Source: Clostridium sp. 28_12
Lineage (GTDB): Bacteria > Bacillota > Clostridia > TANB77 > CAG-508
Assembly: GCA_001916055.1 (NCBI GenBank)
Contig: MNRR01000025.1
Location: forward strand, 13,433-45,432
Direction: 5' to 3'
DNA: 32,000 nt
Positions 8,875 to 30,545 of the stretch are shown here, piece by piece. A program made the position numbers and the translations under genes. A model generated the notes under the pieces. It did no database searches, had not been told where the DNA came from, and saw nothing but the letters and a program-made list of their open reading frames with translations. The first letter of the stretch is position 1. Each line of letters starts with the position of its first letter.

Positions 8875-9052
8875 TTCATCCCCCCTCACCCCTTTATTTT
8901 ATCACATTTCGACAAATTTTACAATAGTTTACAGAATCTATTTTCTTTTATTTTTTTTTATTTATTCTCACCCAATTCGAGTTTTCAACCAAAATAAAAA
9001 ACCCATATAGTTTTTTCTATACAAGTTTTTTATTTTTTCTTTAAAATTTATT

Positions 9053-11037: not shown

Positions 11038-11505
11038 ATGGAGTTGACAAAGAATATATTTTTTAATACAGATAAATTAGTTGAAAATAGTAAAGTTAAA
11101 ATTTCATATACAGGTAAGTTTTTCCAAGATAATTCTGAAAAAGTATTTTTTCATTATGGTTTTGGAGAAAATTGGGACAATGTAAAAGATATTGTAATGG
11201 AAAAAACCGAACTAGGATTTCAAACTGAAATAGAGCTTATCTCAAGTGAAACACTTAATTTTTGTTTCTTTAATGAAAATGGTGAATGGGATAACAATTA
11301 TAATAAAAATTATGTATTCCCTATCGAAAAGAAATCAGTAGAATTAATTGTTTTAGATGATGAACCTGTTTCTTTAGGTCATGCAAGAAAATTAAGAAAA
11401 TCTTATATCTGGAGCAAAAAAATTCGTTTAGCTATTTATAAAATAATTACATACTTGCCAAAAGTAATCTCTGGCAACTACAAGAAAAAAGCTTCAGAAC
11501 AATGA
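11038..11505 (+). CDS. Hypothetical protein with CBM25/CBM53-like carbohydrate-binding pattern
   Basis: 155-aa ORF with SD AAAGGAG. Pattern KISYTG..VFFHYGFGENW..LNFCFFNENGEWDNNYNKNY resembles starch-binding CBM25/53 modules (from memory, not searched). No signal peptide. Confidence 0.45.
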   Translation: MELTKNIFFNTDKLVENSKVKISYTGKFFQDNSEKVFFHYGFGENWDNVKDIVMEKTELGFQTEIELISSETLNFCFFNENGEWDNNYNKNYVFPIEKKSVELIVLDDEPVSLGHARKLRKSYIWSKKIRLAIYKIITYLPKVISGNYKKKASEQ

Positions 11506-12381: not shown

Positions 12382-12458
12382 TGGAGCCACTTCTCAGATT
12401 CGAACTGAGGACCCCCGCATTACAAGTGCGGTGCTCTGGCCAACTGAGCTAAAGTGGC
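12382..12458 (-). tRNA. tRNA-Thr (anticodon UGU), CCA encoded
   Basis: Reverse complement gccactttagctcagttggccagagcaccgcacttgtaatgcgggggtcctcagttcgaatctgagaagtggctcca. 7-bp acceptor stem, anticodon loop CTTGTAA, T-loop TTCGAAT. Confidence 0.9.
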
Positions 12459-12462
12459 ATTC

Positions 12463-12537
12463 TGGTGACCCCGACGGGAATCGAACCCATGACTCCGCCG
12501 TGAAAGGGCGGTGTCTTAACCGCTTGACCACGGGGCC
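12463..12537 (-). tRNA. tRNA-Glu (anticodon UUC), CCA encoded
   Basis: Reverse complement ggccccgtggtcaagcggttaagacaccgccctttcacggcggagtcatgggttcgattcccgtcggggtcacca. Anticodon loop CTTTCAC. Confidence 0.9.
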
Positions 12538-12585
12538 ATAATATTTGGAATTCTAATTTTTTTCAAACTAGAATTCCTTTTAATT

Positions 12586-12661
12586 TGGTGAGCTATCCGC
12601 GACTCGAACGCGGGACAACTTGATTAAAAGTCAAGTGCTCTACCACCTGAGCTAATAGCCC
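12586..12661 (-). tRNA. tRNA-Lys (anticodon UUU), CCA encoded
   Basis: Reverse complement gggctattagctcaggtggtagagcacttgacttttaatcaagttgtcccgcgttcgagtcgcggatagctcacca. Anticodon loop CTTTTAA. Confidence 0.9.
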
Positions 12662-12689: not shown

Positions 12690-12718
12690 ATAATACACGA
12701 TTTTTTTGCAGTTGTCAA
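12690..12718 (-). promoter_or_regulatory. Putative promoter of the tRNA-Lys/Glu/Thr cluster
   Basis: Minus strand: TTGACA (12718-12713), 17-nt spacer, TATTAT (12695-12690), about 28 nt upstream of the tRNA-Lys 5' end. An A/T tract lies upstream. Confidence 0.55.
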
Positions 12719-12803
12719 TACATTTTTAAAAAATTTTTAAAAAATTTTTATTTTTTTGTTTTTTATTATAAATTCATGTGTTTTTTGTCAGCATTTTTTA
12801 TTT

Positions 12804-12989
12804 TTAAGCATTTAATTTTTCTAAAACTTCTTTAACATCTATACCATGAACATCACAAGCTTCTTCTAAAGTCTCCATTTGAGAAGCAGGGCATCCTAAA
12901 CAATGCATTCCACATTCTATTAAAGTTTCTGCTTTTTCTGGAGCAACTTGTAAAATTTCGCCAATTTTTGTGTCTTTACTAAATTTCAT
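12804..12989 (-). CDS. Small DUF1858-like / hybrid-cluster-protein-associated redox disulfide protein
   Basis: Internal ATG at 12989 with SD AAGGATGG gives the 61-aa MKFSKDTKIGEILQVAPEKAETLIECGMHCLGCPASQMETLEEACDVHGID. The CxxC context is typical of this small family (from memory). Confidence 0.6.
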   Translation of the reverse strand: MKFSKDTKIGEILQVAPEKAETLIECGMHCLGCPASQMETLEEACDVHGIDVKEVLEKLNA

Positions 12990-13077
12990 TTTATAACCAT
13001 CCTTATAAAAATATTTGGATTTTTTAAGGTATATCCATAAACCTGAATTTATTTTATCACAAAATTTCAAAAAAGTA

Positions 13078-13106
13078 TAGACAAAATCAAAAATTTGTTG
13101 TATTAT
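13078..13106 (+). promoter_or_regulatory. Putative promoter of the plus-strand T4SS operon
   Basis: TAGACA (13078-13083), 17-nt spacer, TATTAT (13101-13106). Confidence 0.4.
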
Positions 13107-13139
13107 GTTTACGAAAAAGGCGGTGATTACTTTTTAATT

Positions 13140-13307
13140 ATGACTTTAAGTACTTTAATTAATATATTTTTTATCATTTATATTATTAGTTTGTTTATTA
13201 CTTTATATTCAATTTATACATTTTTTGATATTAAATTGTTTCATAATTTACAAGGTTCCAAATTAAAAATTAAACAAAAAAATGAAAACAGGAGTGATTT
13301 TTATTAA
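13140..13307 (+). CDS. Possible small membrane protein preceding the coupling protein
   Basis: ATG at 13140 within track ORF 13095..13307. MTLSTLINIFFIIYIISLFITLYSIYTFF is one TM helix followed by a basic tail. The SD-like GGCGGTGAT is rather far upstream. The stop overlaps the T4CP 5' end. Confidence 0.25.
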   Translation: MTLSTLINIFFIIYIISLFITLYSIYTFFDIKLFHNLQGSKLKIKQKNENRSDFY

Positions 13308-15003
13308 ACGTTTTATATTTACATGCATATTTGTATTATTACTTTCAATTTGTTCTTATCAATTTTTTTGTCCTATATATTTAGCTGATGAAATTATTGT
13401 TTCTTTTGGATTACATCCATCTGATATTTGTTATGATAACCCTATACTTTGGAAATATTTAAAAACAAGTTTCATATTTTTCTACCTATTCTCTAATGTA
13501 GTCATTTTAAACTCTTTAATTTCAAGATTTAATATTTTCAAAGGTTCTGAAAAACTTTCTAATAATTCAAGAATAAATTTAGAAAATAATTCAAATAGAA
13601 ATAACTCCTCCTTACAATTATTAATCGGTCAAAATATTTCTACAAATCAAAAAACTTACATTCCAGAATCTGGTTTGTATCAAAATTTTTTAATTACAGG
13701 GACAATTGGAACAGGAAAAACAAGTTCTGCTATGTATCCTTTTACGGAACAATTTTTTAAGTATAATTCTCTTAATCCAAACAATAAATTAGGTATTTTA
13801 ATATTAGATGTAAAAGGAAATTATTTCAAACAAGTCAAACAATTTGCTTCAAAATATCATTTAGAAAAAGATATACTAGAAATTGGCTTAGATTCAAAAA
13901 TCCGTTATAATCCATTGCATAAGCCAAATTTAACTCCTATAGTTTTAGCAAATCGTTTAAAAACTATTCTACTACTTTTTTCTGAAAATAATTCTGAATC
14001 ATTCTGGTTAGACAAAGCAGAACAAATTTTGGCAGAATGCATTAAATTGTGTAGATTATATAATAATGGTTATGTTACATTTATTGAACTTCACAAGCTT
14101 GTTATAGAACCAAATTATTATAAATCAAAAATTGAAGTGTTAAAAAAATTATTTTATGAATCAAAATTATCCCACAAACAAATATATGAATTAAACAGCG
14201 CCTTAGAATTTTTTGAAAAAGAATTTAATTCTCTTGACCCTAGAACTTTAGCAATTTTAAGGTCTGAAATTTCTCGAATAACAAATATTTTTGTCTCGGA
14301 TTATAAAATTTCTAAAATTTTTTGTCCAGAAAAAAAAGATTTAAATTTTAAGGGATTTTCTTCTATGATTAAAAATGGAAAAATTGTAGTTCTTAATATG
14401 AATATCGCTGAATATAAAAACCTCTCAAAAATAATTGCAGCATATTTAAAATTAGATTTTCAATCAGAAGTAATGTATAACTTATCACATTCGAAAATAA
14501 AAACTACAGTTTTTATATGTGATGAATATGCAGAATATGTTAATAAAACCGATGCTGACTTTTTTTCTCTTAGTCGTGAGGCAAAATGTATTAATATTGT
14601 TTCAACTCAAAGCTATTCTTCTTTGAAAAACTCTTTAAAAGATGAAAATGCCGTAAAAGTAATTATTCAAAATCTTATTAACAAAATCTGGTTTAGAACT
14701 GATGACATTTTCACAATTGAAGAAGCTCAAAAACAACTAGGAAAAGAAGAAAAAATTCACACATCTAGAGCAATTTCAGAAAATGCCAAAGAAACAAAAT
14801 TCAATTATATTACAAATTCTTTAAATTCTCAAAATTCGAGCATTACAGAAAGTTTTAATACATATACACAAAAAGATTTTATGTATGATACTAACTTTTT
14901 TACACAAGAATTGGAAACATTTTCAGCCCTTACTTTTTTATCTGATGGTTTTCATATAATAAGTCCGAGCAAATTGAAAATGCTTCCATATTTTAAAAAA
15001 TAG
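13282..15003 (+). CDS. Type IV coupling protein (VirD4/TraG-family T4CP)
   Basis: 573 aa with N-terminal TM segments. Walker A ITGTIGTGKTSS; LDVKGNY (VirD4-like DPKGE position); Walker B VFICDEYAEY. The first ATG (13282) has no SD. GGAGTG (13291-13296) sits 6 nt before an in-frame ATT at 13303, so the true start is uncertain. Confidence 0.75.
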   Translation: MKTGVIFIKRFIFTCIFVLLLSICSYQFFCPIYLADEIIVSFGLHPSDICYDNPILWKYLKTSFIFFYLFSNVVILNSLISRFNIFKGSEKLSNNSRINLENNSNRNNSSLQLLIGQNISTNQKTYIPESGLYQNFLITGTIGTGKTSSAMYPFTEQFFKYNSLNPNNKLGILILDVKGNYFKQVKQFASKYHLEKDILEIGLDSKIRYNPLHKPNLTPIVLANRLKTILLLFSENNSESFWLDKAEQILAECIKLCRLYNNGYVTFIELHKLVIEPNYYKSKIEVLKKLFYESKLSHKQIYELNSALEFFEKEFNSLDPRTLAILRSEISRITNIFVSDYKISKIFCPEKKDLNFKGFSSMIKNGKIVVLNMNIAEYKNLSKIIAAYLKLDFQSEVMYNLSHSKIKTTVFICDEYAEYVNKTDADFFSLSREAKCINIVSTQSYSSLKNSLKDENAVKVIIQNLINKIWFRTDDIFTIEEAQKQLGKEEKIHTSRAISENAKETKFNYITNSLNSQNSSITESFNTYTQKDFMYDTNFFTQELETFSALTFLSDGFHIISPSKLKMLPYFKK

Positions 15004-15055: not shown

Positions 15056-15373
15056 ATGAAAAAAATATTATGTATTGTTGTTTTAGCTACATATCTTATA
15101 CTTGCACTCTCTACCACTGTTTTTGGAGCCACACCAAAACTAGTTAATAAGTTAAATAGCGCTTTCGAAGACATAGAAAGTTGGATTATAAAAATATCTA
15201 CTCCTGCAGCTGCAGTCGCTGTTTGTACTGGGGCACTAATGAGAAAATTTAGCTTTGGTGATGAAGAAAAAATTAGAACAGGAAAAAAATTGATAACAGG
15301 TTCCTTATTTTCTTATGCTTTTATTTTAGCAATAGATTTAATATTATCTGCAATTCAGTCATTAATTGGTTAG
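15056..15373 (+). CDS. VirB2/TrbC-like pilin-type small membrane protein
   Basis: 105 aa with SD AAGGATGG. Signal peptide MKKILCIVVLATYLILALSTTVFGA, then two hydrophobic helices (AAAVAVCTGALM; GSLFSYAFILAIDLILSAI), the classic VirB2 layout. Confidence 0.6.
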   Translation: MKKILCIVVLATYLILALSTTVFGATPKLVNKLNSAFEDIESWIIKISTPAAAVAVCTGALMRKFSFGDEEKIRTGKKLITGSLFSYAFILAIDLILSAIQSLIG

Positions 15374-15381
15374 GTGATTAA

Positions 15382-16257
15382 ATGGAAAATAATTTTAATA
15401 TCACAGCTAACATCATCGAAGCAATTAATACAATTTTAAGCAATCTTTTTTCTTCAATTGATGAAAGTATCTATTCCATTCTTGATGATATAACCTTTGT
15501 TAATTCAGATATAATAAATGATTCATATTTTGAAAAAATCTTAGGAACTTCAACATCTAATGGAATTTTACTAATTGCAAATTCGTTATTATTTGGTGTT
15601 TTATTATATTATTCAATAAAATTATTATTTGCACATTTTACTTACCAACAAGTTGAAAACCCTAAACAATTTATATTTAAACTTATCATTTGGGGAATTT
15701 GCATTAATTCTTCTTATTTTTTTATAGAGCAATTTTTAAATATAATTTCAAATATTTCTTTAGCTATCAGAAGTATTGGCGAGGATTTATTCCATAAAAG
15801 TATTTGTTTTTCTGAATTAATTTCAGAACTAAATTCCAGCTTTAATACAGATTCTTCGCTTGACATTTTCTCCTTAGATGGCATAATAAAAGCTTCTCTT
15901 ACTACATCTTTATTAAATCTTGTATTTACATATTCTTTCAGATATGTAATGTTAAAAATATTTATATTACTTACTCCTTTTGCTATTTTGTCATTAGTTT
16001 TAGAAAGCACTTCTTGGTTCTTCAAGGCTTGGAGCAAAAATCTATTTTCATTGCTATTTATACAAATAATTGTTGCAATTGTATTATTAATACTATTTTC
16101 TATGGATTATTCTTCAAATAATTTATTAACCAAATTTATATATATAGGTGCAATGTATACTTTAATAAAATCAAATTCTTTTGTGCGTGATTTTATAGGT
16201 GGTGTTTCCACAACTTTTACTCAAAATGTGGAAAACATTTTCAAAAAAACACATTAA
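15382..16257 (+). CDS. VirB6/TrbL-like polytopic membrane protein
   Basis: 291 aa with several predicted TM helices (ILLIANSLLFGVLLYY, LIIWGICINSSYFFI, IFILLTPFAILSLVL, LFSLLFIQIIVAIVLLILF). Sits between the VirB2-like and VirB3-like genes. Confidence 0.6.
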   Translation: MENNFNITANIIEAINTILSNLFSSIDESIYSILDDITFVNSDIINDSYFEKILGTSTSNGILLIANSLLFGVLLYYSIKLLFAHFTYQQVENPKQFIFKLIIWGICINSSYFFIEQFLNIISNISLAIRSIGEDLFHKSICFSELISELNSSFNTDSSLDIFSLDGIIKASLTTSLLNLVFTYSFRYVMLKIFILLTPFAILSLVLESTSWFFKAWSKNLFSLLFIQIIVAIVLLILFSMDYSSNNLLTKFIYIGAMYTLIKSNSFVRDFIGGVSTTFTQNVENIFKKTH

Positions 16258-16282: not shown

Positions 16283-16567
16283 ATGAAATTTATATTTCCG
16301 CAAAATTATAATTTTAAAAATAAACTTTTAGGAATAATTGATTATTCTACAGCTTTTTTTAATATCTTTTGGTATGTAATTATTTTTATACTATTACATT
16401 TTTTTATTAAAAACTGGAATATTAAAATTTTTATTTTTATATCCTTATGTTTTCCTCTAACTATTTTTAGCATTGTTGGTTTTAATGGTGAACCTATTTT
16501 ATATGTATTTAATTATATTTTAAAATATATTTTTCGTCCTAAATTATATTTATTTAAAAAATATTAA
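16283..16567 (+). CDS. VirB3-like TcpE/PrgI-family membrane protein
   Basis: 94 aa with SD AAAGGAG. N-terminal FPQNYNFKNKLLGIIDYS, then two TM helices: the layout of TcpE/PrgI proteins, which normally directly precede VirB4. Confidence 0.6.
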   Translation: MKFIFPQNYNFKNKLLGIIDYSTAFFNIFWYVIIFILLHFFIKNWNIKIFIFISLCFPLTIFSIVGFNGEPILYVFNYILKYIFRPKLYLFKKY

Positions 16568-16753: not shown

Positions 16754-17809
16754 ATGAAATTAGAACAACCGGAATTGCCATTATTATTCTCAGAAACTGT
16801 CGTTCCTGACATCTTTTTTGCAGAACACTTATCACAAATGCCTTCAAGTAGTGTTAAAGTTTATTTATATATAATATTTTTATCTAAATATAAAAAAGAT
16901 ATAAAATTAAATGATTTATCAAAAAAATTAGCATTACCTTTAAAAGATATAAATGATTCTATTACATATTTGGAATCAAATGATTTAATTATAAGAAAAA
17001 CAACTGGATATGTAGTAGCAAACCTACAAGAACAAGTTTTAAACAAATTATATAAGCCAAACTTAACAATTTCGGCGGAAAAAGTAGCTGATGTTGCTAA
17101 AAATAAAGAGCGTGCAAAAGTAATTGAGCATATAAATAATGCATATTTCCAAGGTATAATGGGACCATCTTGGTATAACGATATTGATTTGTGGTTTACA
17201 AAGTATAATTTCGATGACCAGGTTATGATTGCTCTTTTTGATTACTGTTTTAAACGTTCTGCCCTTCACAAAAAATATGTGCAAACAGTAGCAGAAGCAT
17301 GGGGAAATAACAAGATTCAAACTTGGAATGACCTGGATTTATATTATCAAAAACAAGAAAAATTAGTAAAAATTAAAAAATCAATTGCAAAAAAACTTGG
17401 AAAACAGTCGCTTACACAATACGAAGAGGCATATATAGAAAAATGGGTTATTGACTTCGGTTATGACTTAAATATTATTGAAATAGCCTTAAAAAGAAGT
17501 GTATTCAAGTCAAACCCAACATTCGAATATTTCAATAATATAATAACAAATTGGCATGATAGAAATCTAAAAACACCAGATGAAATTCTTGCATTTATAG
17601 AGCAAAGAAATAAACAAAATAAAGAAACTAAAAAGTTAGAAAAACAAGTTGCAAAAGCATCTTTTGACCAAAGACAATATGATAACTTAGCATTTTTATA
17701 TGCAAACCAAGGAAATTCTCCAATGGGATTTCCAGATAATTCAAATTATACTGAGTCAAAAATATCTGCATCACTATATTCTAACATAGAAGGAGATATA
17801 AATGTCTAA
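16754..17809 (+). CDS. DnaD-domain replication initiation protein (Bacillus DnaB/DnaD-like, two DnaB_2-type repeats)
   Basis: 351 aa with SD GGGGGAGGAA. Two related segments (..NNAYFQGIMGPSWYNDIDLWFTKYNFDDQVMIALFDYCFK.. and ..YEEAYIEKWVIDFGYDLNIIEIALKRSV..FEYFNNIITNWHD) resemble DnaD/DnaB C-terminal repeats. Confidence 0.7.
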   Translation: MKLEQPELPLLFSETVVPDIFFAEHLSQMPSSSVKVYLYIIFLSKYKKDIKLNDLSKKLALPLKDINDSITYLESNDLIIRKTTGYVVANLQEQVLNKLYKPNLTISAEKVADVAKNKERAKVIEHINNAYFQGIMGPSWYNDIDLWFTKYNFDDQVMIALFDYCFKRSALHKKYVQTVAEAWGNNKIQTWNDLDLYYQKQEKLVKIKKSIAKKLGKQSLTQYEEAYIEKWVIDFGYDLNIIEIALKRSVFKSNPTFEYFNNIITNWHDRNLKTPDEILAFIEQRNKQNKETKKLEKQVAKASFDQRQYDNLAFLYANQGNSPMGFPDNSNYTESKISASLYSNIEGDINV

Positions 17810-18812
17810 CGAAATTTTATCAGATTTATTATTAGAATATGACCAAAAAAAACGCAAAGCAGAACTTGATTTAGAAAAACGTAAACAAGAACTTTATGAA
17901 AAAGTTCCTCGACTCCAAGAAATTGAAGATTCTCTAAATACCTTTGCAATTACAACAACTAAAAATATCTTAAATGGAAATACAACTTCATTTAATGAAT
18001 TAACTTCAAAAGTTGAAAACCTAAAAAAAGAAAAAGAAAAAATTTTACAAAATAACGATATCCCAAAAGAATTTTTGGAACCTTATTATGAATGTAAAAT
18101 TTGTAAAGATACCGGATATATTCAAACACAAAATTCAGCATCTGCAATGTGTCCATGTTTAAAGCAAAAATTATTAGATATATCTTATAATAAATCTAAT
18201 ATATCAAATTTAAGCAAGGAAAATTTCGAAACATTTAATATTAATATTTTTTCAGATTCAATAAACTCTGAAAAATATAGATTAAATATTTCACCTCGTA
18301 ATAATATTATTAATATAAAATCAAAATGTATTGAATTTGTTAATAATTTTGATAATCCTGATACTAAAAACTTATTATTCACAGGTAATACAGGACTTGG
18401 AAAAACTTTTATGAGTAACTGCATTGCAAATGAATTAATTAAAAAAGGAAAAAACGTACTTTATCAAACGGCTCCTGTTTTATTAGAAACCGTAATTGAT
18501 AATAAAATGAATAAATATAAAAATTCCAAACAAGATAATTTTTATAAAAACGTTTTAGAAGCTGATTTATTAATCATTGATGATCTTGGAACCGAATGTT
18601 TAAATAGTATGAAATTAAGTGAATTATTTACAATTTTAAATACGCGTTTACTTAATTTAAATAATAAAGTAACTAAAACAATTATTTCTACTAATTTAGG
18701 TATAAATAATATTTTTAGAAATTATGAAGAACGTATTGGGTCTCGTATTGCTGGATTCTATGATATTTATTATTTTTTCGGTGATGACTTAAGACTTAGT
18801 ACAAAACATTAA
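17802..18812 (+). CDS. DnaI/DnaC-type AAA+ helicase loader
   Basis: 336 aa; overlaps the upstream gene by 8 nt. Zn-ribbon-like CKICKDTGY..CPC; Walker A FTGNTGLGKTF; Walker B LLIIDDLGTE. Confidence 0.75.
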   Translation: MSNEILSDLLLEYDQKKRKAELDLEKRKQELYEKVPRLQEIEDSLNTFAITTTKNILNGNTTSFNELTSKVENLKKEKEKILQNNDIPKEFLEPYYECKICKDTGYIQTQNSASAMCPCLKQKLLDISYNKSNISNLSKENFETFNINIFSDSINSEKYRLNISPRNNIINIKSKCIEFVNNFDNPDTKNLLFTGNTGLGKTFMSNCIANELIKKGKNVLYQTAPVLLETVIDNKMNKYKNSKQDNFYKNVLEADLLIIDDLGTECLNSMKLSELFTILNTRLLNLNNKVTKTIISTNLGINNIFRNYEERIGSRIAGFYDIYYFFGDDLRLSTKH

Positions 18813-18944: not shown

Positions 18945-21401
18945 TTATTTTTCATCTTCTTCAACCTCTGCTATTTCTGGAGTCAATGTTTCCATACTAA
19001 CCACTTTTCCTCCATCTGTTGTTCTCATTAAAGTAACACCTTGCGTTGAACGTCCTAAAACACTTATATCTTTAACTTTAAGTCTTATTATTGTACCTTT
19101 ATCTGTTATAAGCATTACATCTTCATCATCTGTTGCAATCCTTGCACCAACTAGTTTTCCTGTTTTTTGAGTTACTTTATATGTTATTACTCCTTTACCT
19201 CCACGAATTTGTACTCTATATTCATCAAGTTCTGTTCTCTTACCAAATCCATTTTCAGTAATTGCAAGCAATGTTGCTTTTCCTCCTGATATTATTGATT
19301 CCATTCCAATTACTTCATCATCCTCATCAATTCTAATTCCTATAACACCTTGAGAAACTCTACCAATTGGACGTACGTCTTTTTCATCAAAAGTAATACA
19401 CATACCATTTCTTGTAACAAGTACAACATTGTCTTCCCCATCTGTTAGTCTTACAGCAATAAGTTCATCATCTTCTTTTAATGTTATTCCTTGTAAACCT
19501 GTTTTACGAGCAGAATTATATTCAGCAAGTGCAGTTTTCTTTATTAAACCATTCTTTGTTGCCATTAATAAATATTTACCTTCTGCAAAATTTTGAATTG
19601 GTATAACTGCAGAAACTTTTTCTCCTGCGTCTAAACTTAATAAGTTTACAATTGCTGTTCCCCTAGCAGTTCTACCAGCTTCTGGAACTTCGTATCCTCT
19701 TAATTTGTATAATTTACCTTTATTTGTAAAGAATAATATTGTATCATGAGTTGAAGCTGTAAATATTTGTTTTACAAAATCTTCTTCTCTTGTTGCAATT
19801 CCTGTTATTCCTTTTCCTCCACGTTTTTGGCTTCTATATGTGTCAATTGGCATCCTCTTAATATATCCAAAATGTGTTAAGGCAATAACTGTTTGTTCCT
19901 CTTTTATTAAGTCATCTATATCTATTTCACCTTCAGCAGCAACAATTTTTGTTTTTCTATCATCTCCAAATTTATCTCTTATTTCAATAAGTTCTTCTTT
20001 TATGATATCAAATACTAATTTTTCACTATTTAAAATAGCTCTTAAATGTTCGATTAATTCCATTAATTGTTTATATTCTTCTTCAATTTTTTCACGTTGC
20101 AAACCAGATAATGTTTTTAATCTCATATCCAATATTGCTTGTGCTTGAATATCTGTTAAACCAAATCTTTCAATTAATCTTTCCTTAGCATCATCATAAG
20201 AGCTACGGATTATTGCTATTACTTCATCAATATTATCAATTGCGATTCTTAGTCCTTCTAATATATGTGCTCTTGCAAGCGCTTTGTCTAAATCAAATTG
20301 TGTTCTTCTTAAAATTACAGTTTTTCTATGTTCTATATAACAATCTAAACATTGTCTTAATGTTAAAACTTTTGGTTCTCCATCAACAAGTGCTAACATG
20401 ATAACCCCAAATGTATCTTGCATTTGAGTATTTTTGTATAATTGATTTAATACAACTTGAGGATTAGCATCTCTTTTTAATTCCATAACAATTCTTACTT
20501 TTTCTTTTCTGTCAGATTCGTCACGCATTTCAGAGATACCCTCTATTCTCTTTTCTCTTGCAAGTCTTGCAATATTTTCAATTAAACGAGCTTTATTTAC
20601 TTGATATGGTAATGATGAAACAATTATTCTTTGTCTGTTTCCACTCATTTCTTCAATTTCAGCTTCAGCTCTCATTATTATTTTTCCTCTTCCTGTTTTA
20701 TAGGCTTCTTTAATTCCTTCTAATCCTAGAATTAATCCACCTGTTGGAAAATCTGGTCCTTTAATTATTTGTATTAATTCATCATCTGTTACATTATCAT
20801 CATCAATTATTTTTATAATACCATTTATTACTTCTGTTAAATTGTGTGGTGGTATATTTGTTGCCATACCTACGGCAATCCCTGATGAACCATTAACTAA
20901 TAATGCTGGTATTTTTGCTGGTAAAACAGTTGGTTCTTGCAATCTGTCATCATAGTTTGGCATAAAATCTACTGTATTTTTTTCAATATCTACTAACATT
21001 TGCTCTGCTATTTTTGACATTCTTGCTTCAGTATACCTCATTGCGGCAGCTCCATCACCATCTATTGAACCGAAATTACCATGTCCATCAATCAACATAT
21101 ATCTCATTGAAAAATCTTGTGCCATTCTTACCATTGCATCATATACAGAAGCATCACCATGTGGATGATATCTTCCTAATACAGACCCAACTGTATTAGC
21201 ACATTTCCTGTATGGCTTGTCTGATGTAATTCCATCTTCATGCATTGCATACAATATTCTTCTATGTACAGGTTTTAAACCATCTCTTACATCTGGCAAT
21301 GCTCTTGATACAATTACACTCATTGCATAATCAATGTAGGCAGTTCTCATTTCTTCTTCAATGTCTCTTTTTATTACATTTCCGTCTTGTCTTTCTTCCA
21401 T
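18945..21401 (-). CDS. gyrA: DNA gyrase subunit A
   Basis: 818 aa. YAMSVIVSRALPDVRDGLKPVHRRILYAM, HPHGD and AAAMRYTEARM (catalytic Tyr). C-terminal beta-pinwheel repeats and an acidic tail. Confidence 0.97.
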   Translation of the reverse strand: MEERQDGNVIKRDIEEEMRTAYIDYAMSVIVSRALPDVRDGLKPVHRRILYAMHEDGITSDKPYRKCANTVGSVLGRYHPHGDASVYDAMVRMAQDFSMRYMLIDGHGNFGSIDGDGAAAMRYTEARMSKIAEQMLVDIEKNTVDFMPNYDDRLQEPTVLPAKIPALLVNGSSGIAVGMATNIPPHNLTEVINGIIKIIDDDNVTDDELIQIIKGPDFPTGGLILGLEGIKEAYKTGRGKIIMRAEAEIEEMSGNRQRIIVSSLPYQVNKARLIENIARLAREKRIEGISEMRDESDRKEKVRIVMELKRDANPQVVLNQLYKNTQMQDTFGVIMLALVDGEPKVLTLRQCLDCYIEHRKTVILRRTQFDLDKALARAHILEGLRIAIDNIDEVIAIIRSSYDDAKERLIERFGLTDIQAQAILDMRLKTLSGLQREKIEEEYKQLMELIEHLRAILNSEKLVFDIIKEELIEIRDKFGDDRKTKIVAAEGEIDIDDLIKEEQTVIALTHFGYIKRMPIDTYRSQKRGGKGITGIATREEDFVKQIFTASTHDTILFFTNKGKLYKLRGYEVPEAGRTARGTAIVNLLSLDAGEKVSAVIPIQNFAEGKYLLMATKNGLIKKTALAEYNSARKTGLQGITLKEDDELIAVRLTDGEDNVVLVTRNGMCITFDEKDVRPIGRVSQGVIGIRIDEDDEVIGMESIISGGKATLLAITENGFGKRTELDEYRVQIRGGKGVITYKVTQKTGKLVGARIATDDEDVMLITDKGTIIRLKVKDISVLGRSTQGVTLMRTTDGGKVVSMETLTPEIAEVEEDEK

Positions 21402-21437
21402 AGTTTTCTACCTCTTTCTTTTTTCTTTTACTATTGT

Positions 21438-21466
21438 ATTATATTACACTAACGCTTATTTTGCAA
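21438..21466 (-). promoter_or_regulatory. Putative dedicated gyrA promoter
   Basis: Minus strand: TTGCAA (21466-21461), 17-nt spacer, TATAAT (21443-21438), about 35 nt upstream of the gyrA ATG. Confidence 0.55.
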
Positions 21467-21567
21467 GGATTTTAGCAACTTTCTTTAAAATATTTAATTA
21501 AAATTTCCAATTGAATCCAGTATATTTTTTATATTTATGTATATCTTAAATATATGCTTTTTGCTTA

Positions 21568-21596
21568 TTATCTGTTAGCAAATTTCGCTATATAAT
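21568..21596 (+). promoter_or_regulatory. Putative XRE-gene promoter with a near-palindromic operator in the spacer
   Basis: TTATCT, 17-nt spacer, TATAAT (21591-21596). The spacer contains TAGCAAATTTCGCTA (21576-21590), a 15-nt palindrome with one mismatch. Confidence 0.3.
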
Positions 21597-21622
21597 TGTT
21601 AAAAAATTTGTGAGGTGAACAT

Positions 21623-21973
21623 ATGCAATTTAATCAAGAAGACATTGATATTGGAGAAAGATTACGCGGAATAAGAGAAAATATGCACATGACAAGAGAA
21701 CAATTTTCTGAAAAAATTGATATTACTGATTCTTTCTTAGGACAAATTGAAAGAGGTGAACGTTCATTAAGTGTAAAAACATTAAAGAAAGTTGTAAAAT
21801 ATGCTGGCGTTTCTGCGGACTATTTATTATTTGGCAATCAAAATAATAATGAAGTAATTCAAAAGATAAATAATATTTTAACAGTAAATTCTGATATAAC
21901 ATCTGATTTTATTTATCATATTGTTATGTGTTCAAATGATTTTTGTAAAAAAATATTAGATGAAAATAAATAA
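21623..21973 (+). CDS. XRE-family helix-turn-helix transcriptional regulator
   Basis: 116 aa with SD GAGGTGA. IGERLRGIRENMHMTREQFSEKIDITDSFLGQIERGERSLSVKTLKKV is a typical HTH_3/Cro-CI motif. Confidence 0.8.
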   Translation: MQFNQEDIDIGERLRGIRENMHMTREQFSEKIDITDSFLGQIERGERSLSVKTLKKVVKYAGVSADYLLFGNQNNNEVIQKINNILTVNSDITSDFIYHIVMCSNDFCKKILDENK

Positions 21974-21980
21974 TTATATG

Positions 21981-22022
21981 AAAATTTAAGAATTTTTTAT
22001 TATTTAGAAATTCTTAAATTTT
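21981..22022. terminator. Bidirectional terminator between the XRE gene and the 230-aa ORF
   Basis: 15-bp stem aaaatttaagaattt / aaattcttaaatttt with a 12-nt loop. Confidence 0.55.
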
Positions 22023-22715
22023 TTATGCCAAATTTTTCGCTAATCTTTTTTCATCTTCTGCAATATTAAAATTTTTTCCATTATTTTTAATTAATTCATG
22101 AAGTGCTTTTACTTGTTTGGTTTCGTTTATTAAATTTTCTATCGGAACTATTTTTTCATATTGTTTTTCTATCTTTTTATATGCTTTCTCCATTCCATCA
22201 AAATCTTTGTTATTATAGCACTTTTTCCATTCACTCACTTCGCTTTCCATCTTTTTTACATATTCAACTTGTTCATCTAATTCTTTTTTTATATTATTTG
22301 ATACATTATTTAATAATACATTTTTTCCATTTTTTATTACATTTTTTATATCTCTATTTATATATCCTTTTTTGTATGCACTATTTATTACATTATCTAA
22401 TACATCAGAAATGCTATCAACAATCCCACCATTTCCTATTGCAATCTTTACTTGTTCAATATTTTCAAAATTTCCTGTAAATATTCCAGCCGTACTCTTT
22501 CCAAAATTTACAGCTGAATTTATTGCAGTATCTATTCCTGTTTTTAATCCATTATTTAATAAAGAATTTTTTATATCAATAACTTGATTTTCTATTAGAT
22601 CTGGTAATATTGCTCTTAGTCCAATATCAATTGCATAATTAATTGTTTTTCCAAAAGTATTATTAAAAAAATTATTTTTTTCATTTTCTATATTTAATCT
22701 ATTATTTATTTCCAT
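22023..22715 (-). CDS. Hypothetical protein, translationally coupled to VirB4
   Basis: 230-aa ORF overlapping the VirB4 stop by 14 nt. Gly/Asn/Ile-rich N-terminal half (GLKTGIDTAINSAVNFGKSTAGIFTG..GNGGIVDSISDVLDNVINS) and a Lys/Glu-rich, probably coiled-coil C-terminal half. I recognise no family. Confidence 0.55.
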   Translation of the reverse strand: MEINNRLNIENEKNNFFNNTFGKTINYAIDIGLRAILPDLIENQVIDIKNSLLNNGLKTGIDTAINSAVNFGKSTAGIFTGNFENIEQVKIAIGNGGIVDSISDVLDNVINSAYKKGYINRDIKNVIKNGKNVLLNNVSNNIKKELDEQVEYVKKMESEVSEWKKCYNNKDFDGMEKAYKKIEKQYEKIVPIENLINETKQVKALHELIKNNGKNFNIAEDEKRLAKNLA

Positions 22716-24492
22716 TAATATTTTTCCTTTCTATAATTTTTCTTTCAAAATCACTAGCTTCTATACTTATTAGAACATGTTCATCTCCAACAAAAGTCAA
22801 ACATTCTCCTCTTCTTAAGGATTTTATTTCCATTTTTTCTTTTTCTGATAAATTAGAATATTGTGCTAATAATTTTATATTTTCTTCTTCCAGAGAAAAA
22901 AATGTTTTTATACTAGAATTATTTAAAATACTTTTTCCATAAGTTCCATTTTCTAAGCTAAATAAATCCGAAATATCTTGTGTTATTGCTACACTACTTC
23001 CTCCATATTTTCTTATTGTTTTAAATATTTTATAAATAAATTTTGCTACTTCTTTATTAGAAGTTACTCCTATTAATCTCCAAATTTCATCTAAATAAAT
23101 TGCCTTTTTTATTTTTCTATTTATTTTTATTTTATCCCAAAATAATTCAGTAAATAAATACATTCCATATTTCATATTTTCTTCACCTAGTTCATAAACA
23201 TCTGCAATAATTAATTTTTTATTTAATTCAATATTTGTATAATTATTGAAAAATTTTAATGATCCCTTTATAAATGGTATTAATTTAACTTTAAATTTTC
23301 TTGTTCTTTCATCATCGAAATTATTATATAAATCTTCCAAAATCGGCATATCTTTTGTAGTTTTAAATTTTCCTTTTTTATATAATGTTTTGTCATTAAA
23401 TGTAATATTTTTCTTTTTATATGTTTGAATTAATTTTTCTTCTAATATTGCTTTTTCCTCTTCATTTAATTCTCCAAAAATCAAATTAAAAAAACCAATT
23501 AATTTTCCTATTTTAGTTGCTAAATATCCATGTTCATTTTCTTCTATACTTTCTTTTCTAATATCAAAAATATTTATATAATTTTCAGAAGTAGGTCCTA
23601 TTTTAATAATAGTTCCTCCTAAATTTTGTGCAATATTGTTATATTCTCTTTCTGGATCTATTACGTATTGTTCAATTCCTAATAAAGTATTTCTTAAAAT
23701 TAACAATTTAGTATAAAACGATTTTCCTGCTCCACTTGTTCCGAAAATACACATATTAGCATTTTTATATCTATTTGTATTGTATCTATCTATTAATATA
23801 AGTGAATTATTATACATATTATTTCCTACATAAATCCCCTCTTCTTCAACGATTGAAGAGGAAATAAATGGATATGTACTTATTAATCCAGATGTAAGAA
23901 TATTCCTCTTTCCTATTATTTTTAACTCCTCTTTATTTTCCATCAATGGTAAACATGAAATAAATAATTGTTCTTGCCTAAAGTTCGTCCTTCTTGTTTG
24001 TAGCCCTTTACTCTGTAAAATACCTTCGATTTTATCTAAATTATATTCTAGTTCTTTTTTATTAGTAGAAAATAATGTTAAATAAATATAAAGAAAATAC
24101 ATATCTTCATTATTTATCTGAAGTTCTTTTCTTATATATTTAGCATCATTATATGTAAATGCTGCAATATCTATATCTTGCCTACTTTCATTTGATTGTT
24201 TTAATTCAACTCCTACATTTCCAATATTATAGGTTAATTCTTTTATAACTTTTGAAGTTTCTTTTTTTTCATAAAAAACAGAAATATTCATATTAATACT
24301 AGTTTCTATTAATGACTTTAAAATTAAATCATTATATTCTCTATAATAATTTACAATTGTTATTCCTGAATAAAAATAATCGTCTATTTCTAAAAATCTT
24401 GGATTATTTAAATTTATATATGATGGTGATATAAAATCTTTTTCGTCAAAAAAACCTTCTTTTATTTCATTTTTTTCTTTTTTATTTATCAT
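22702..24492 (-). CDS. VirB4-family conjugation ATPase, C-terminal (ATPase) portion of a split gene
   Basis: 596 aa. RNILTSGLISTYPF, Walker A IFGTSGAGKSFYTK, Walker B AIYLDEIWRLIG, GGSSVAITQD. Resembles Gram-positive VirB4 proteins (Tn916 Orf16 / TcpF / CD1110 type) from memory. The ATG at 24492 has no SD. AGGAGGTG (24523-24530) sits 6 nt before an in-frame ATA at 24516. Confidence 0.85.
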   Translation of the reverse strand: MINKKEKNEIKEGFFDEKDFISPSYINLNNPRFLEIDDYFYSGITIVNYYREYNDLILKSLIETSINMNISVFYEKKETSKVIKELTYNIGNVGVELKQSNESRQDIDIAAFTYNDAKYIRKELQINNEDMYFLYIYLTLFSTNKKELEYNLDKIEGILQSKGLQTRRTNFRQEQLFISCLPLMENKEELKIIGKRNILTSGLISTYPFISSSIVEEEGIYVGNNMYNNSLILIDRYNTNRYKNANMCIFGTSGAGKSFYTKLLILRNTLLGIEQYVIDPEREYNNIAQNLGGTIIKIGPTSENYINIFDIRKESIEENEHGYLATKIGKLIGFFNLIFGELNEEEKAILEEKLIQTYKKKNITFNDKTLYKKGKFKTTKDMPILEDLYNNFDDERTRKFKVKLIPFIKGSLKFFNNYTNIELNKKLIIADVYELGEENMKYGMYLFTELFWDKIKINRKIKKAIYLDEIWRLIGVTSNKEVAKFIYKIFKTIRKYGGSSVAITQDISDLFSLENGTYGKSILNNSSIKTFFSLEEENIKLLAQYSNLSEKEKMEIKSLRRGECLTFVGDEHVLISIEASDFERKIIERKNINGNK

Positions 24493-24528
24493 TAATTTTC
24501 TTATTTTGTTTTCTATTTATTACACCTC

Positions 24529-25065
24529 CTATTCTAAAAATTTTTTTAAATTGAAAAATGAAAACAAAATATTTTTAGTTTCCTCTTTCTTACATTCTAA
24601 TACAATATTTCCACATCTACTTAAACAATCTTTAATTTTAAAATATTTTTCATTTAAATCTTGAATTATATTTTCTTCTAAATTTTCTGAATTGTTCATT
24701 ATAATTAAATAAATATTTTTTGATGCAGATTTGTTTCTATCATTTTTCTCTTTAATAAATTTTATATATTCTTCTGAATACTTTTTTAAAATATTATTTT
24801 TTGTTATTTGTGAAATTTTTTGAATATTTTCCATATGATTACTTAAATCTTCTTTTTTACTTTGAATTAAAATTTGTATATCAAAATTACATGTTTTTAA
24901 AAAAACTTTATAAGAATTTAAAATTGACTCTTTTTCTAATTGAGTTTTAAGATTATAATTTATAGGAATTACTCTTAGTATTTTTATATACTTATTCTTT
25001 TTTAATTTAATGATTCCTTTATCTAAAATTTTTTCTATCGAAATCCATTTTTGTATTGATTTTAT
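24529..25065 (-). CDS. VirB4-family N-terminal domain fragment (separate ORF, apparently non-ATG start)
   Basis: The track lists only 24529..24834, from the first ATG. The frame stays open up to a TGA at 25072-25074. The extra region reads KRIKSIQKWISIEKILDKGIIKLKKNKYIKILRVIPINYNLKTQLEKESILNSYKVFLKTCNFDIQILIQSKKEDL, which looks like the conserved VirB4 N-terminus. AGGAGGTG (25073-25080) lies 7 nt before an in-frame ATA at 25065. There is no in-frame ATG/GTG/TTG upstream of 24834. Confidence 0.6.
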   Translation of the reverse strand: MKSIQKWISIEKILDKGIIKLKKNKYIKILRVIPINYNLKTQLEKESILNSYKVFLKTCNFDIQILIQSKKEDLSNHMENIQKISQITKNNILKKYSEEYIKFIKEKNDRNKSASKNIYLIIMNNSENLEENIIQDLNEKYFKIKDCLSRCGNIVLECKKEETKNILFSFFNLKKFLE

Positions 25066-25111
25066 TCTTTTTCACCTCCTAATTTTTTCCTTTATGATCC
25101 ATTGCTTACTT

Positions 25112-25140
25112 ATTATACACTGTTTTGCTTTGATTTGCAA
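25112..25140 (-). promoter_or_regulatory. Putative strong promoter of the VirB4 operon
   Basis: Minus strand: TTGCAA (25140-25135), 17-nt spacer, TATAAT (25117-25112), about 30 nt upstream of the AGGAGGTG SD. Confidence 0.55.
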
Positions 25141-25671
25141 GAAAAATCGTTCGACACGATTCGACAAAAAATTTTTTCAAAAAATTTTTATTTTTTTGAA
25201 TATAAAAAAACTTTTTGCACATAATAAGTGTGTAAGGTTAATATCAGTTGAGTAAAGAGTATTAATAGATTAAAAATTAGTTTATTAATATTCGAGCAAA
25301 GATGTATATTGGTTTATTTTTATGGATTAATATATGTCGGCGATAAGAATATATTATGTATATGCAAGCTATATTTTTATTTAAATTTTCAAGGATTATT
25401 TTTATATTTTATATATGGTTAAATTATATGTAATATATTTGAACTAAGATTATTCTTGTATTATATGGGATTATTAGTATGTCCCTCTGGGATGAATATA
25501 GTTTCTACTAGTGCATTTGTAGTCGAACGACTGATTAATATATGTGGTATATAGTTTATTTGTATAGCAATATACATTAGATTAAACTACTACATATATT
25601 AGTCTGAGTTAAGATTGATATTGGCTTTATAGATAATAGGATTCCACAAGTTTTGGAATCCTATTAAATTT

Positions 25672-25710
25672 GAAAAAACTGTCAATAGAGTTTCTTCTCT
25701 GTTGACAGTT
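25672..25710 (-). terminator. gyrB rho-independent terminator
   Basis: 14-bp stem (25677-25690 with 25697-25710, one G-T pair), 6-nt loop, followed on the minus strand by TTTTTT. Starts 6 nt after the gyrB stop. Confidence 0.75.
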
Positions 25711-25715
25711 TAATT

Positions 25716-28746
<3,031 letters not shown>

Positions 28747-29157
28747 ATTATTCTCCATTTGTGTATGATTTTTATTTTAATTTTTAAAATTTTTATTATT
28801 TTTCATATATAAAATTATATTAATAAAAAATAAAAACGTCTTATTTTTGATTTTCGTGCGTCGATTTTTTTGCTATTTTTTATTTTTTTTTATTTTTTAA
28901 TATTATTTTATATTATTTCAAATTATTTTTTTAATTATTATTTTATTTATTTAATTTTATATTTTTTATTTTAAGTAAACATTAGTAAACTTTTAACTTT
29001 ACAATATTCAATATTAAATATCTCTTTTATTCTATTTTTTTCTATTTTATTCTTTTTATTTTGATTTTAATCGATTATTTTATTTTTTAATTATTTTATA
29101 ATAAATAATTTATTTTTATTTTATTTCTCAATTTTATGTTTATTTACATTTTGCATA

Positions 29158-29192
29158 AATAACAAATTTGGTCAGAAGCAAGTCTGACCAAA
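29158..29192 (-). terminator. dnaN terminator
   Basis: 10-bp stem tttggtcaga / tctgaccaaa (29167-29192), followed on the minus strand by TTTGTTATT. Confidence 0.6.
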
Positions 29193-29195
29193 TAA

Positions 29196-30311: not shown

Positions 30312-30328
30312 TTTGCTCTCTCCTTTAT

Positions 30329-30545
30329 TAATTATTAAATATAATATAAATATTATTAGTAGTAATAGTATTAGGTCCTGTGGATAATGTGGAAAACTAT
30401 GTGGAAACATTTAATCCCTAAGAAAAATCTGTGTGTATAACTTAGTGGATAAGCTTTAACTTTTTCCACACTATTCTTTTCACATTGTGGATTTCTTAGT
30501 TATTAACAGTTTATCAACACACTTTCAACAATTGGGTGTGGATAT
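30329..30545. other. oriC-type region in the dnaA-dnaN spacer: DnaA-box cluster, DnaA-trio-like array and AT-rich unwinding element
   Basis: Matches to TTATCCACA or its complement TGTGGATAA: TGTGGATAA 30379-30387 (perfect), TGTGGAAAA 30388-30396, TGTGGAAAC 30400-30408, AGTGGATAA 30444-30452, TTTTCCACA 30462-30470, TGTGGATTT 30486-30494, TTATCAACA 30511-30519, TGTGGATAT 30537-30545. Abutting the tandem boxes are GTCC and then TAT TAT TAG TAG TAA TAG TAT TAG (30351-30374). A pure A/T stretch runs from 30329 to 30350. Confidence 0.8.

Follow-up and report, generated by a model that had tools for sequence, protein, structure and literature searches.

Inherited genes between gyrB and gyrA of uncultured gut Clostridia: a predicted large structured RNA and part of a chromosomal type IV secretion system

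Why are gyrB and gyrA of Clostridium sp. 28_12 separated by 4.3 kb of other DNA? Both genes lie in a 32-kb stretch (contig MNRR01000025.1, positions 13,433 to 45,432; hereafter the window), the origin region of a low-GC (∼27%) bacterium, in which dnaA, dnaN, recF, gyrB and gyrA are all on the minus strand; in related assemblies rpmH-rnpA-yidD-yidC-jag are found just past dnaA. A first-pass annotation of the window had read the interval as accessory DNA inserted into a conserved gene pair. We compared the window with its relatives, fetched as loci of ∼20 kb that are designated here by L-numbers, and consider it probable that the interval is a block inherited throughout a clade and composed of three independent units: an RNA gene, an operon for the ATPase part of a type IV secretion system (T4SS), and an XRE-family gene followed by a promoter for gyrA. 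The features of the interval and its borders are as follows.

25716-27671, minus strand: gyrB (Pfam DNA_gyraseB, Toprim, HATPase_c and DNA_gyraseB_C)
25676-25711, strand not applicable: hairpin 1 after gyrB, a 15-bp stem followed by a T-run
25637-25663, plus strand: predicted intrinsic terminator of the RNA; pairing is kept while the stem sequence varies, and a T-rich tail follows
25231-25629, plus strand: predicted RNA body, a closing stem (P1) and five long hairpins (from folding energy and covariation)
25196-25225, plus strand: predicted RNA promoter (TTGAAT, 18-nt spacer, CATAAT), conserved in 52 sequences
25150-25156 and 25160-25166, minus strand: two tandem TGTCGAA boxes of the Spo0A '0A box' type, with 10-bp spacing
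25112-25140, minus strand: predicted trsD-virB4-orf230 promoter (TTGCAA-17-TATAAT), conserved beside the boxes in the window, L091, L001, L003 and L017
24529-25065, minus strand: trsD-like gene, 178 amino acids (aa), matching positions 2-168 of NCBIfam conju_CD1110 (41 bits)
22702-24492, minus strand: VirB4-type (TrsE-like) ATPase, 596 aa (P-loop_TraG, AAA_10, DUF87)
22023-22715, minus strand: orf230, 230 aa, no family, always the last gene of the operon
21981-22022, strand not applicable: perfect 15-nt, AT-only inverted repeat where orf230 and the XRE gene converge
21623-21973, plus strand: XRE-family helix-turn-helix regulator (HTH_3, E = 4.5e-13)
21438-21466, minus strand: predicted gyrA promoter (TTGCAA-17-TATAAT); CTTGCAAAA and TATAAT are invariant in four species
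18945-21401, minus strand: gyrA (DNA_topoisoIV and six DNA_gyraseA_C repeats)

The assembly of this region is sound. The exact VirB4 protein of the window is present in 446 blocks of the searched collection, and in 10 independent assemblies, including two whose contigs measure 1.62-1.66 Mb, 19.3 kb align colinearly with the window at 99.3-99.9% identity; these two observations together exclude an assembly error that joined unrelated contigs. The 10 assemblies show no presence/absence variation of the block. The gyrB gene is called as 643 aa in 10 assemblies, and translation probably begins at the ATG of MEKYNHKY, several codons into the open reading frame (ORF).

The idea of an unusual insertion does not survive comparison with relatives, since the same intervening genes are shared by dozens of species-level lineages whose gyrB is 81-95% identical at the amino acid level, an outcome that the first-pass annotation had itself named as a refutation. 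In a gyrB scan of one genome per GTDB species, the nearest relatives were metagenome-assembled genomes (MAGs) of uncultured Clostridia with gyrB 83-90% identical, and each relative with a long enough contig holds trsD, virB4 and orf230 between gyrB and gyrA, among them the species representatives L003, L004 and L017 (gyrB 83-86% identical). The sister species L091/L092 (VirB4 89% identical) has the complete layout, including the XRE gene. A metagenome scan, made to find copies of the RNA described below, yielded 120 further loci from ∼50 lineages, and nearly all of those that are long enough read recF-gyrB-(RNA)-trsD-virB4-parA-like-orf230-gyrA, and then on the opposite strand dnaI, dnaD, o94, o291, o105 and a gene for a type IV coupling protein (T4CP). 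Judged by this gene order, the 4.3-kb block is ancestral synteny, common to an entire clade of uncultured gut Clostridia with low GC and small genomes.

The genes of the block are intact, under purifying selection, and co-diverge with the gyrase genes. Between the window and L091, dS (substitutions per synonymous site) of virB4 (0.71) and trsD (0.51) is similar to that of gyrB (0.63) and gyrA (0.58); dN/dS (dN, substitutions per nonsynonymous site) is 0.08 for virB4, 0.20 for trsD and 0.42 for orf230, with gyrB at 0.05 and recF at 0.11. Composition gives no foreign signal: the intervening genes have a GC content of third codon positions (GC3) of 0.09-0.12, and gyrB and gyrA one of 0.10-0.12. 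Total GC is lower in the block (0.18-0.23) than in the gyrase genes (∼0.31), and this deficit lies in codon positions 1 and 2, as it does in recF (GC 0.21). Domain and repeat searches agreed with the first-pass annotation in finding no recombinase, either among the window ORFs or among the called genes of related assemblies, and no boundary repeats at the block edges other than low-complexity imperfect ones, with no target duplication or att site. Among plasmid VirB4 proteins, identity does not exceed 33.5%.

The expectation that gyrA directly follows gyrB holds for 35 of the 46 fetched loci that contain both genes (gap <250 bp), but in the other 11 the gap measures 0.5-5.8 kb. The two nearest outgroups have infC, rplT and efp after gyrB, and gyrA is >10 kb away; because adjacency had already been lost there, a separated gyrA is unremarkable in this region of the phylogeny. 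As had been proposed, the genes that separate the pair are of conjugative-element ancestry, but they reflect ancestral synteny and not an insertion specific to this genome. Both TTGCAA-17-TATAAT promoters that had been named, before the VirB4 operon (25140-25112(-)) and before gyrA (21466-21438(-)), are present. Promoter-like hexamer pairs as a class do not exceed expectation in the window (64 found vs 68 expected in shuffled sequence), and it is solely their conservation between species that makes these two credible. The claim that gyrA is transcriptionally independent is thus upheld as a prediction, with its own putative promoter kept in four species.

The unit nearest to gyrB had been described as a noncoding stretch of roughly 450 bp. 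About 500 bp without ORFs do lie there, but they appear to hold an autonomous RNA gene on the strand opposite to gyrB. The ∼450 nt downstream of gyrB are conserved at 70-91% in seven of eight aligned species, as high as gyrB coding DNA, and they are conserved even where the next gene differs, as in L001 (an Rpn-like nuclease) and L002 (a pilin-like protein). The minimum free energy of the plus strand is -138.1 kcal/mol vs -89.7 +/- 5.2 for dinucleotide shuffles (z = -9.3), whereas that of the opposite, gyrB-sense strand is only -65.7 kcal/mol (z = -3.1). RNAalifold applied to the seven species gives -116.4 kcal/mol and 135 pairs, 35 of them with compensatory changes, and 97.1% of pair cells are paired. 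An RNA on the gyrB-sense strand was considered and rejected, with a consensus energy of -14.6 kcal/mol and a structure conservation index of 0.34 vs 1.01 for the plus strand.

To obtain more copies we scanned metagenome contigs with an invariant-block pattern designed to exclude the window's own group. This yielded 131 full-length copies in 53 clusters at <96% identity, 67-91% identical to the window. Covariation was analysed in 52 representatives, using nhmmer and MAFFT/RNAalifold. In these sequences 97.2% of 6301 pair cells are paired; shuffling the partners lowers this to 84.3 +/- 0.3%, and sliding them by 1-3 columns to 35-44%. Changes on both sides are seen in 82 of the 122 pairs vs 48.4 +/- 3.1 in shuffles, and none of 500 shuffles reaches 82. 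The strand of the RNA is fixed by several G-U pairs that are the same in each of the 52 sequences.

The closing stem P1 is 14-19 bp long and the five hairpins 16-33 bp. Five of the six helices are entered through a purine-rich linker of approximate sequence GAGYWAAGA, and hairpin 4 is capped by a UUAGUCC-loop-GGAUGAAU element that hardly varies. Upstream, TG-ATA of the -35 and ATAATA of the -10 are 96-100% conserved in the 52 sequences while the spacer varies; the forms seen are TTGAAT or TTGTAT, ∼18 nt and (C)ATAATA, the -10 ending ∼6-8 nt before P1 and the predicted start following ∼7 nt later at the foot of this stem. Downstream, the terminator stem has compensatory changes in 11 of 13 pairs. 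The distance from closing stem to terminator has a median of 430 nt at 23% GC, and the transcript predicted in the window spans ∼25231-25670(+), roughly 435 nt. There is one copy per locus. As for gyrB, a terminator of its own had been claimed, and a hairpin with a T-run is indeed present at 25676-25711; however, there are two hairpins, and the conserved one is the second (25637-25663), hairpin 1 being confined to the window species and missing from the other species in the alignment of the gyrB-downstream region. The terminator at 25637-25663 is, as read from its sequence, bidirectional and would also end gyrB.

The most diverged copies of the RNA are convergent to a znuA / ABC ATPase / znuB zinc-transporter operon and have no gyrB or T4SS genes nearby, which argues that the RNA gene is autonomous. 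These copies are the following.

L175 6795-7201, plus strand: znu-linked RNA copy
L211 6298-6758, plus strand: znu-linked RNA copy
L130 5245-5712, plus strand: znu-linked RNA copy
L126 cluster: znu-linked RNA copies

The RNA appears to be an undescribed family. With the 4227 models of Rfam 15, among them OLE, ROOL, GOLLD, HEARO, raiA, RNase P, tmRNA, 6S and SRP, only tRNAs were matched in the window and the RNA had no match at gathering score, nor did eight loci with diverged copies; at E values up to 10 nothing credible was found in 24900-25800, the best matches being miRNA and snoRNA models at 11-20 bits. Plasmid and phage collections held nothing like the element, and a search of the literature returned only the known large RNAs OLE, ROOL, GOLLD and raiA, each already in Rfam. 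Two other identities were rejected. As to protein coding, the conserved stretch has no ORF of at least 40 aa other than two overlapping plus-strand ones (25010-25255 and 25102-25224) at its promoter-proximal edge. A DnaA-box cluster, iterons or an origin of transfer (oriT) do not fit with variation that preserves base pairs and with an element that also occurs away from gyrB and the T4SS genes. Our best guess for its role is a scaffold or sponge that would bind several copies of one protein through the GAGYWAAGA linker.

The stretch that separates trsD from the RNA gene is a hot spot for other cargo, and many MAG contigs break there. In L001 the RNA gene is followed by a 296-aa Rpn-like (PD-(D/E)XK) putative nuclease or transposase (3131-4021), and in L002 by a 484-aa protein with a prepilin-type N-terminus (4798-6252). 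L114 has trsD and no virB4, orf230 or gyrA within 9.6 kb. In L017 there is 1.1 kb between trsD and virB4 (12708-13826), where the sole ORF of at least 50 aa is a 53-aa one on the minus strand.

The second unit begins with the gene that had been called a split VirB4. Two pieces are present, but they are a TrsD and VirB4 pair, intact in ∼47 lineages, and not a broken gene. The window VirB4 matches conju_CD1110 at positions 184-732 with 298 bits, and adding the trsD piece brings the score to 339 bits vs a cut-off of 325. VirB4 also matches the VirB4 C-terminal domain of Thermoanaerobacter (PDB 4AG5, E = 1.5e-42) and resembles the ATPase family NF045975 of a Mycoplasma integrative and conjugative element (ICE; 243 bits), and both its Walker A (GTSGAGKS) and Walker B (YLDE) motifs are intact. 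The trsD orthologue of L004 is a clean 191-aa ORF that matches NF041427 TrsD/TraD with E = 4.7e-7, below the family cut-off, and that of L091 is called as 182 aa and PF26593 TraC-like. The two-gene split is found in every lineage compared, with the trsD frame of ∼180 codons open in 47 distinct lineages. For virB4, dN/dS is 0.08-0.27, and its 3.9 variable sites per kb within the species are among the lowest of the region. A separate TrsD that is homologous to the VirB4 N-terminus defines the pGO1 subclass of monoderm T4SS of mating-pair formation type FATA (MPF-FATA) (PMC12102498), and by its domain matches the window's trsD plus virB4 is the natural gene pair of such pGO1-type systems.

The start of trsD shows an apparent frameshift, which is the same in 10 assemblies, and in 22 of 47 distinct lineages trsD has no in-frame ATG, GTG or TTG. 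A pseudogene reading, with a GTG start put out of frame by one extra A, was dropped after comparison of the 47 lineages, because among the lineages read the GTG is part of the Shine-Dalgarno sequence GGAGGTGA, whose GGAGG precedes an in-frame ATA or ATT by 8-9 nt, with AAA usually coming next. In the window the in-frame AUA (25065-25063) is 9 nt past the GGAGG core. In roughly half of the lineages, we infer, AUA or AUU serves as a weak start codon for trsD. The virB4 gene of the window likewise has GGAGG, 8 nt and an in-frame ATA at 24516, a possible earlier start than the ATG at 24492, which has no ribosome-binding site. Gene callers miss the putative AUA or AUU start of trsD and report a truncated 101-aa product. 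For annotation, neither the 'split' of VirB4 nor the 'frameshift' of trsD would be a defect.

The intervening block is, by gene content, only half of a larger T4SS gene set, the rest of which flanks gyrA on its other side.

13282-15003, plus strand: T4CP, 573 aa (TrwB_AAD_bind E = 3.3e-9 and TraG-D_C E = 2.4e-7, both past cut-offs)
15056-15373, plus strand: o105, VirB2-like pilin candidate, a secreted 105-aa protein with two transmembrane segments (T4SS_pilin E = 2.9e-4, TrbC E = 1.7e-3)
15382-16257, plus strand: o291, VirB6-like candidate, a polytopic membrane protein of 291 aa (TrbL/VirB6 E = 0.059, under cut-off)
16283-16567, plus strand: o94, a 94-aa protein in the VirB3/PrgI position (position and two hydrophobic segments; no family match)
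16754-18812, plus strand: DnaD-domain protein and DnaI/DnaC-type helicase loader (DnaB_2, DnaD_dom; NF005304, 336 bits vs a cut-off of 215)

The T4CP has Walker A (GTGKT) and Walker B (ICDE) motifs and also matches SXT_TraD, while the T4SS_pilin match of o105 scores 21.3 bits, under the 26.6 cut-off. T4CP, o105, o291 and o94 are conserved in sequence, and their order is kept in L091, L102, L142, L160 and L178. The DnaD and DnaI genes sit between this operon and gyrA, a position that is also conserved. No relaxase domain was found in any ORF of the window or in any called gene of the related assembly loci, and the window holds no integrase, cell-wall hydrolase or VirB8-like gene.

The two TGTCGAA boxes suggest how the first of these operons may be controlled. 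They lie between the divergent RNA and trsD promoters, 9 bp from the trsD -35 (25135-25140). The 10-bp tandem arrangement of 0A boxes is known from Spo0A-regulated promoters. TGTCGAA, the core Spo0A box in Bacillus and Clostridioides (PMC3485338), occurs three times in the 32 kb, two of them here, and the tandem pattern is found once per locus, always at the trsD promoter. Of 47 gyrB-linked lineages 24 have a perfect box, in each case on the trsD strand, and no znu-linked lineage has one; our own estimate of the chance expectation, from base composition, is ∼0.004 per locus. No 0A box was found in front of the T4CP operon, nor in front of the znu-linked RNA. Activation of the trsD operon by phosphorylated Spo0A (Spo0A~P) through these predicted boxes is inferred.

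The remaining genes of the interval, the 230-aa ORF without a family and the convergent XRE gene, are both present as described. The orf230 protein gave no Pfam, NCBIfam or PHROG family and no PADLOC-type lead. The orf230 family is confined to this clade; it comprises 370 representative clusters, and these are with few exceptions stand-alone proteins 230-250 aa long. Protein homology searches found only close, nameless orthologues from the clade, which added prevalence and no function. An AlphaFold 2 model of orf230 from a 59-sequence alignment is all-helical, with a mean predicted local distance difference test score (pLDDT) of 90.2 and a predicted template modelling score of 0.83, while a shallow alignment gave a pLDDT of 50. 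Foldseek found no fold match for the model in the PDB (best E = 0.59, TM-score at most 0.30), and orf230 may have a new fold or be an elongated helical bundle that Foldseek handles poorly. In most lineages a gene for a ParA/MinD-like P-loop-domain protein of ∼370-400 aa lies between virB4 and orf230 (L004 7097-8209; L017 15686-16882). Beyond the window species the XRE gene is found only in L091, L144, L122 and L204, and it is absent where the ParA-like gene is kept; by this distribution it is a lineage-specific addition. The inverted repeat at 21981-22022 is at most a weak terminator.

Other parts of the window were noted in passing. The gap between dnaN and recF (28759-29195) is 437 bp of ORF-free DNA at 17% GC, and varies in length among relatives: L003 and L005 have none, L017 has ∼260 bp, and in L091 the gap reaches ∼560 bp. 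The mechanically defined dnaN ORF carries a 33-codon N-terminal extension (30312-30410), and gene calls begin at MKIVCYK. One strain of the window species has an insertion sequence-type transposase with an rve domain between rpmH and dnaA (L085 1100-2074). At 12382-12661 (minus strand), ∼600 bp before the T4CP operon and beside a DUF1858 gene, lies a cluster of tRNA-Lys(ttt), tRNA-Glu(ttc) and tRNA-Thr(tgt), where no integrase or repeat points to an integrated element. Positions 1-7483 (minus strand) are taken up by a giant ORF of >2,494 aa with an N-terminal signal peptide that runs off the start of the window and looks like a repetitive surface protein or adhesin. Between it and the tRNA cluster are genes for a PGA_cap (CapA-like) protein (7705-8889, minus strand), a VanW / PG_binding_4 / G5 protein (9053-10831, minus strand) and a small CBM53/CBM25 carbohydrate-binding protein (11038-11505, plus strand), which looks like a cell-envelope neighbourhood.

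A simple account can be given of how this locus arose and operates. A conjugative element would have entered the origin-proximal region before the clade radiated and would then have lost its integration and relaxase functions, the remaining set being co-opted as a chromosomal translocon with a role other than self-transfer, as has been proposed for Patescibacteria. The RNA gene would be read from its own sigma-A-type promoter towards gyrB and would stop at the hairpin that ends both genes, a shared terminator that would insulate gyrB transcription from all that follows. The operon trsD-virB4-(parA-like, lost here)-orf230 would supply the ATPase module of an MPF-FATA, pGO1-like T4SS, and would be turned on by Spo0A~P at entry into stationary phase or sporulation, via the two 0A boxes at its -35. 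Its membrane module, with the T4CP and the VirB2-, VirB6- and VirB3-like proteins, would come from the convergent operon past gyrA. The third unit would be the lineage-specific XRE regulator and then gyrA's own promoter.

Three other explanations have to be weighed against this one. A lineage-specific and fairly recent insertion of accessory or mobile DNA, such as an ICE remnant in a gyrB-gyrA operon, would account for genes of conjugative-element type, for the XRE regulator and for a total GC (0.18-0.23) below that of the gyrase genes (∼0.31), and the space after gyrB does hold other cargo in L001 (Rpn-like nuclease) and L002 (pilin-like protein). We regard it as very improbable, however, given the same genes in the same order in dozens of lineages, dS and GC3 values indistinguishable from those of the flanks, a low total GC that comes from codon positions 1 and 2 and is seen in recF too, a nearest mobile VirB4 that is only ∼33% identical, and the lack of an integrase, att site, target duplication or presence/absence variation in 10 assemblies. 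If the block were instead a dead and decaying remnant, made of functionless pseudogenes of an old conjugative element at a harmless site, one would expect defects of the kind seen in the window: trsD and the Shine-Dalgarno-proximal virB4 start both lack a canonical start codon, the ParA-like gene has disappeared from this lineage and is close to neutral in others, orf230 evolves fast, and no relaxase, hydrolase or VirB8-like gene is present. But a remnant of this sort is hard to reconcile with the low dN/dS of virB4 (0.08-0.27), its intact Walker motifs and its 3.9 variable sites per kb within the species, with T4CP, o105, o291 and o94 kept in order and sequence, or with a trsD frame of ∼180 codons that stays open at 16% GC in 47 lineages, which is unexpected without selection; we think it unlikely.

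Little credence can likewise be given to a live conjugation machine that moves chromosomal DNA (Hfr-like or distributive, as with the Mycoplasma ICE), with its relaxase encoded elsewhere and the structured element serving as a DNA site, an oriT or single-strand origin. The coupling protein is retained beside the system, VirB4 resembles the Mycoplasma ICE family NF045975 (243 bits), and the structured element is directly upstream of trsD; single-strand origins are strand-specific clusters of hairpins too. Nevertheless, the window has no relaxase, the element has a promoter that starts at the first stem, an intrinsic terminator after the last and many invariant G-U pairs, and it has no match in plasmids or phages. 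It is moreover missing in L017, which keeps the T4SS, and present at the znuABC locus with no T4SS genes nearby.

Several observations weigh against the account that we prefer, that of a clade-wide inherited block with an RNA gene and a co-opted T4SS. Promoters, RNA ends and operon structure are all derived from sequence alone, and the AUA and AUU start codons are predictions. The RNA is lacking at its usual site in L017 even though the T4SS is kept, and about half of the gyrB-linked lineages have no perfect 0A box. VirB4 by itself scores 298 bits with conju_CD1110, below the 325 cut-off, and the VirB2-, VirB6- and VirB3-like labels come from sub-threshold matches or from position. The failure to find relaxase, hydrolase and VirB8 genes covers the 32-kb window, and these could be encoded elsewhere in the genome. 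The ParA-like gene is near-neutral (dN/dS 0.81), has no P-loop match in its L004 copy and is lost in the window lineage, and orf230 is weakly constrained (dN/dS 0.42); because of this decay and weak constraint, part of the block may be eroding. We hold with slightly more confidence than doubt that the ∼435-nt transcript founds an undescribed class of large structured RNA, with a closing stem, five long G-U-rich hairpins at a multi-way junction, the GAGYWAAGA linker and the UUAGUCC...GGAUGAAU motif, single-copy and present in >50 gut Clostridia lineages at two loci, and that it lies beside a co-opted, possibly Spo0A-controlled T4SS that would be the first Bacillota counterpart of the Patescibacteria system.

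The RNA resembles OLE, ROOL, GOLLD and raiA only in kind. Like them it is a multi-helix RNA of several hundred nucleotides with covariation, its own predicted promoter and terminator, and a Bacillota host; it differs in its 23% GC, its six similar long G-U-rich helices, its repeated linker and the lack of an Rfam match. Among these known RNAs, raiA has been linked to sporulation in Clostridium (PMC10861870), and ROOL, GOLLD and OLE form RNA-only assemblies (PMC12286853). New large structured RNAs backed by covariation are rare, and OLE, ROOL, GOLLD and raiA each opened a line of work. If the present one is borne out, it would come from abundant uncultured human-gut Clostridia, and its promoter, ends and structure model would make synthesis, probing and cryo-electron microscopy feasible. 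The predicted 0A boxes share with Spo0A-activated sigma-A promoters (spoIIG, spoIIE) and with abrB boxes the TGTCGAA core, the 10-bp repeat and a position upstream of or abutting the -35, but the genes downstream are those of a T4SS and not sporulation genes.

The T4SS is mainly a known type in a new arrangement, in which gene content of apparent mobile-element ancestry lies between gyrB and a probably independent gyrA. As in trsD-trsE of the staphylococcal plasmids pGO1 and pSK41, a VirB4 N-domain homologue of ∼180-200 aa precedes the VirB4 ATPase (PMC12102498); those systems are plasmid-borne with a relaxase and oriT, however, whereas this one is chromosomal, fixed and at most 33.5% identical to plasmid VirB4. 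The CD1110-family VirB4 of CTn2-type elements of Clostridioides difficile (NCBIfam NF045971) is the best-scoring named family for both pieces, but it is a single protein of ∼750 aa in an integrase-bearing mobile element, while here there are two genes, each scoring <325 bits, and no integrase.

By analogy, the closest known parallel would be the chromosomal T4SS of Patescibacteria, which is mostly relaxase-less, of MPF-FATA type, often near dnaA, dnaN, rpmH and rnpA, and essential for epibiotic growth in one strain (PMC12102498). Both have VirB4 with a separate TrsD, and the PrgI/VirB3-like, VirB6-like and VirB2-like proteins of that system would have candidate counterparts here, labelled from weak matches or position. 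Both are chromosomal and vertically kept in a small genome, in the origin region, with no relaxase nearby. They differ in that the host here belongs to the Clostridia (Bacillota), that the coupling protein is adjacent where in Patescibacteria it is usually distant, and that two convergent operons flank gyrA, with a 0A-box promoter. If our reading is correct, an origin-adjacent, relaxase-less T4SS in small-genome Bacillota mirrors that system and offers a second setting for asking what such T4SS transport. Monoderm MPF-FATA systems are the proposed source of the Patescibacteria T4SS, and this clade could thus represent either an independent co-option or a lineage near the donor stock.

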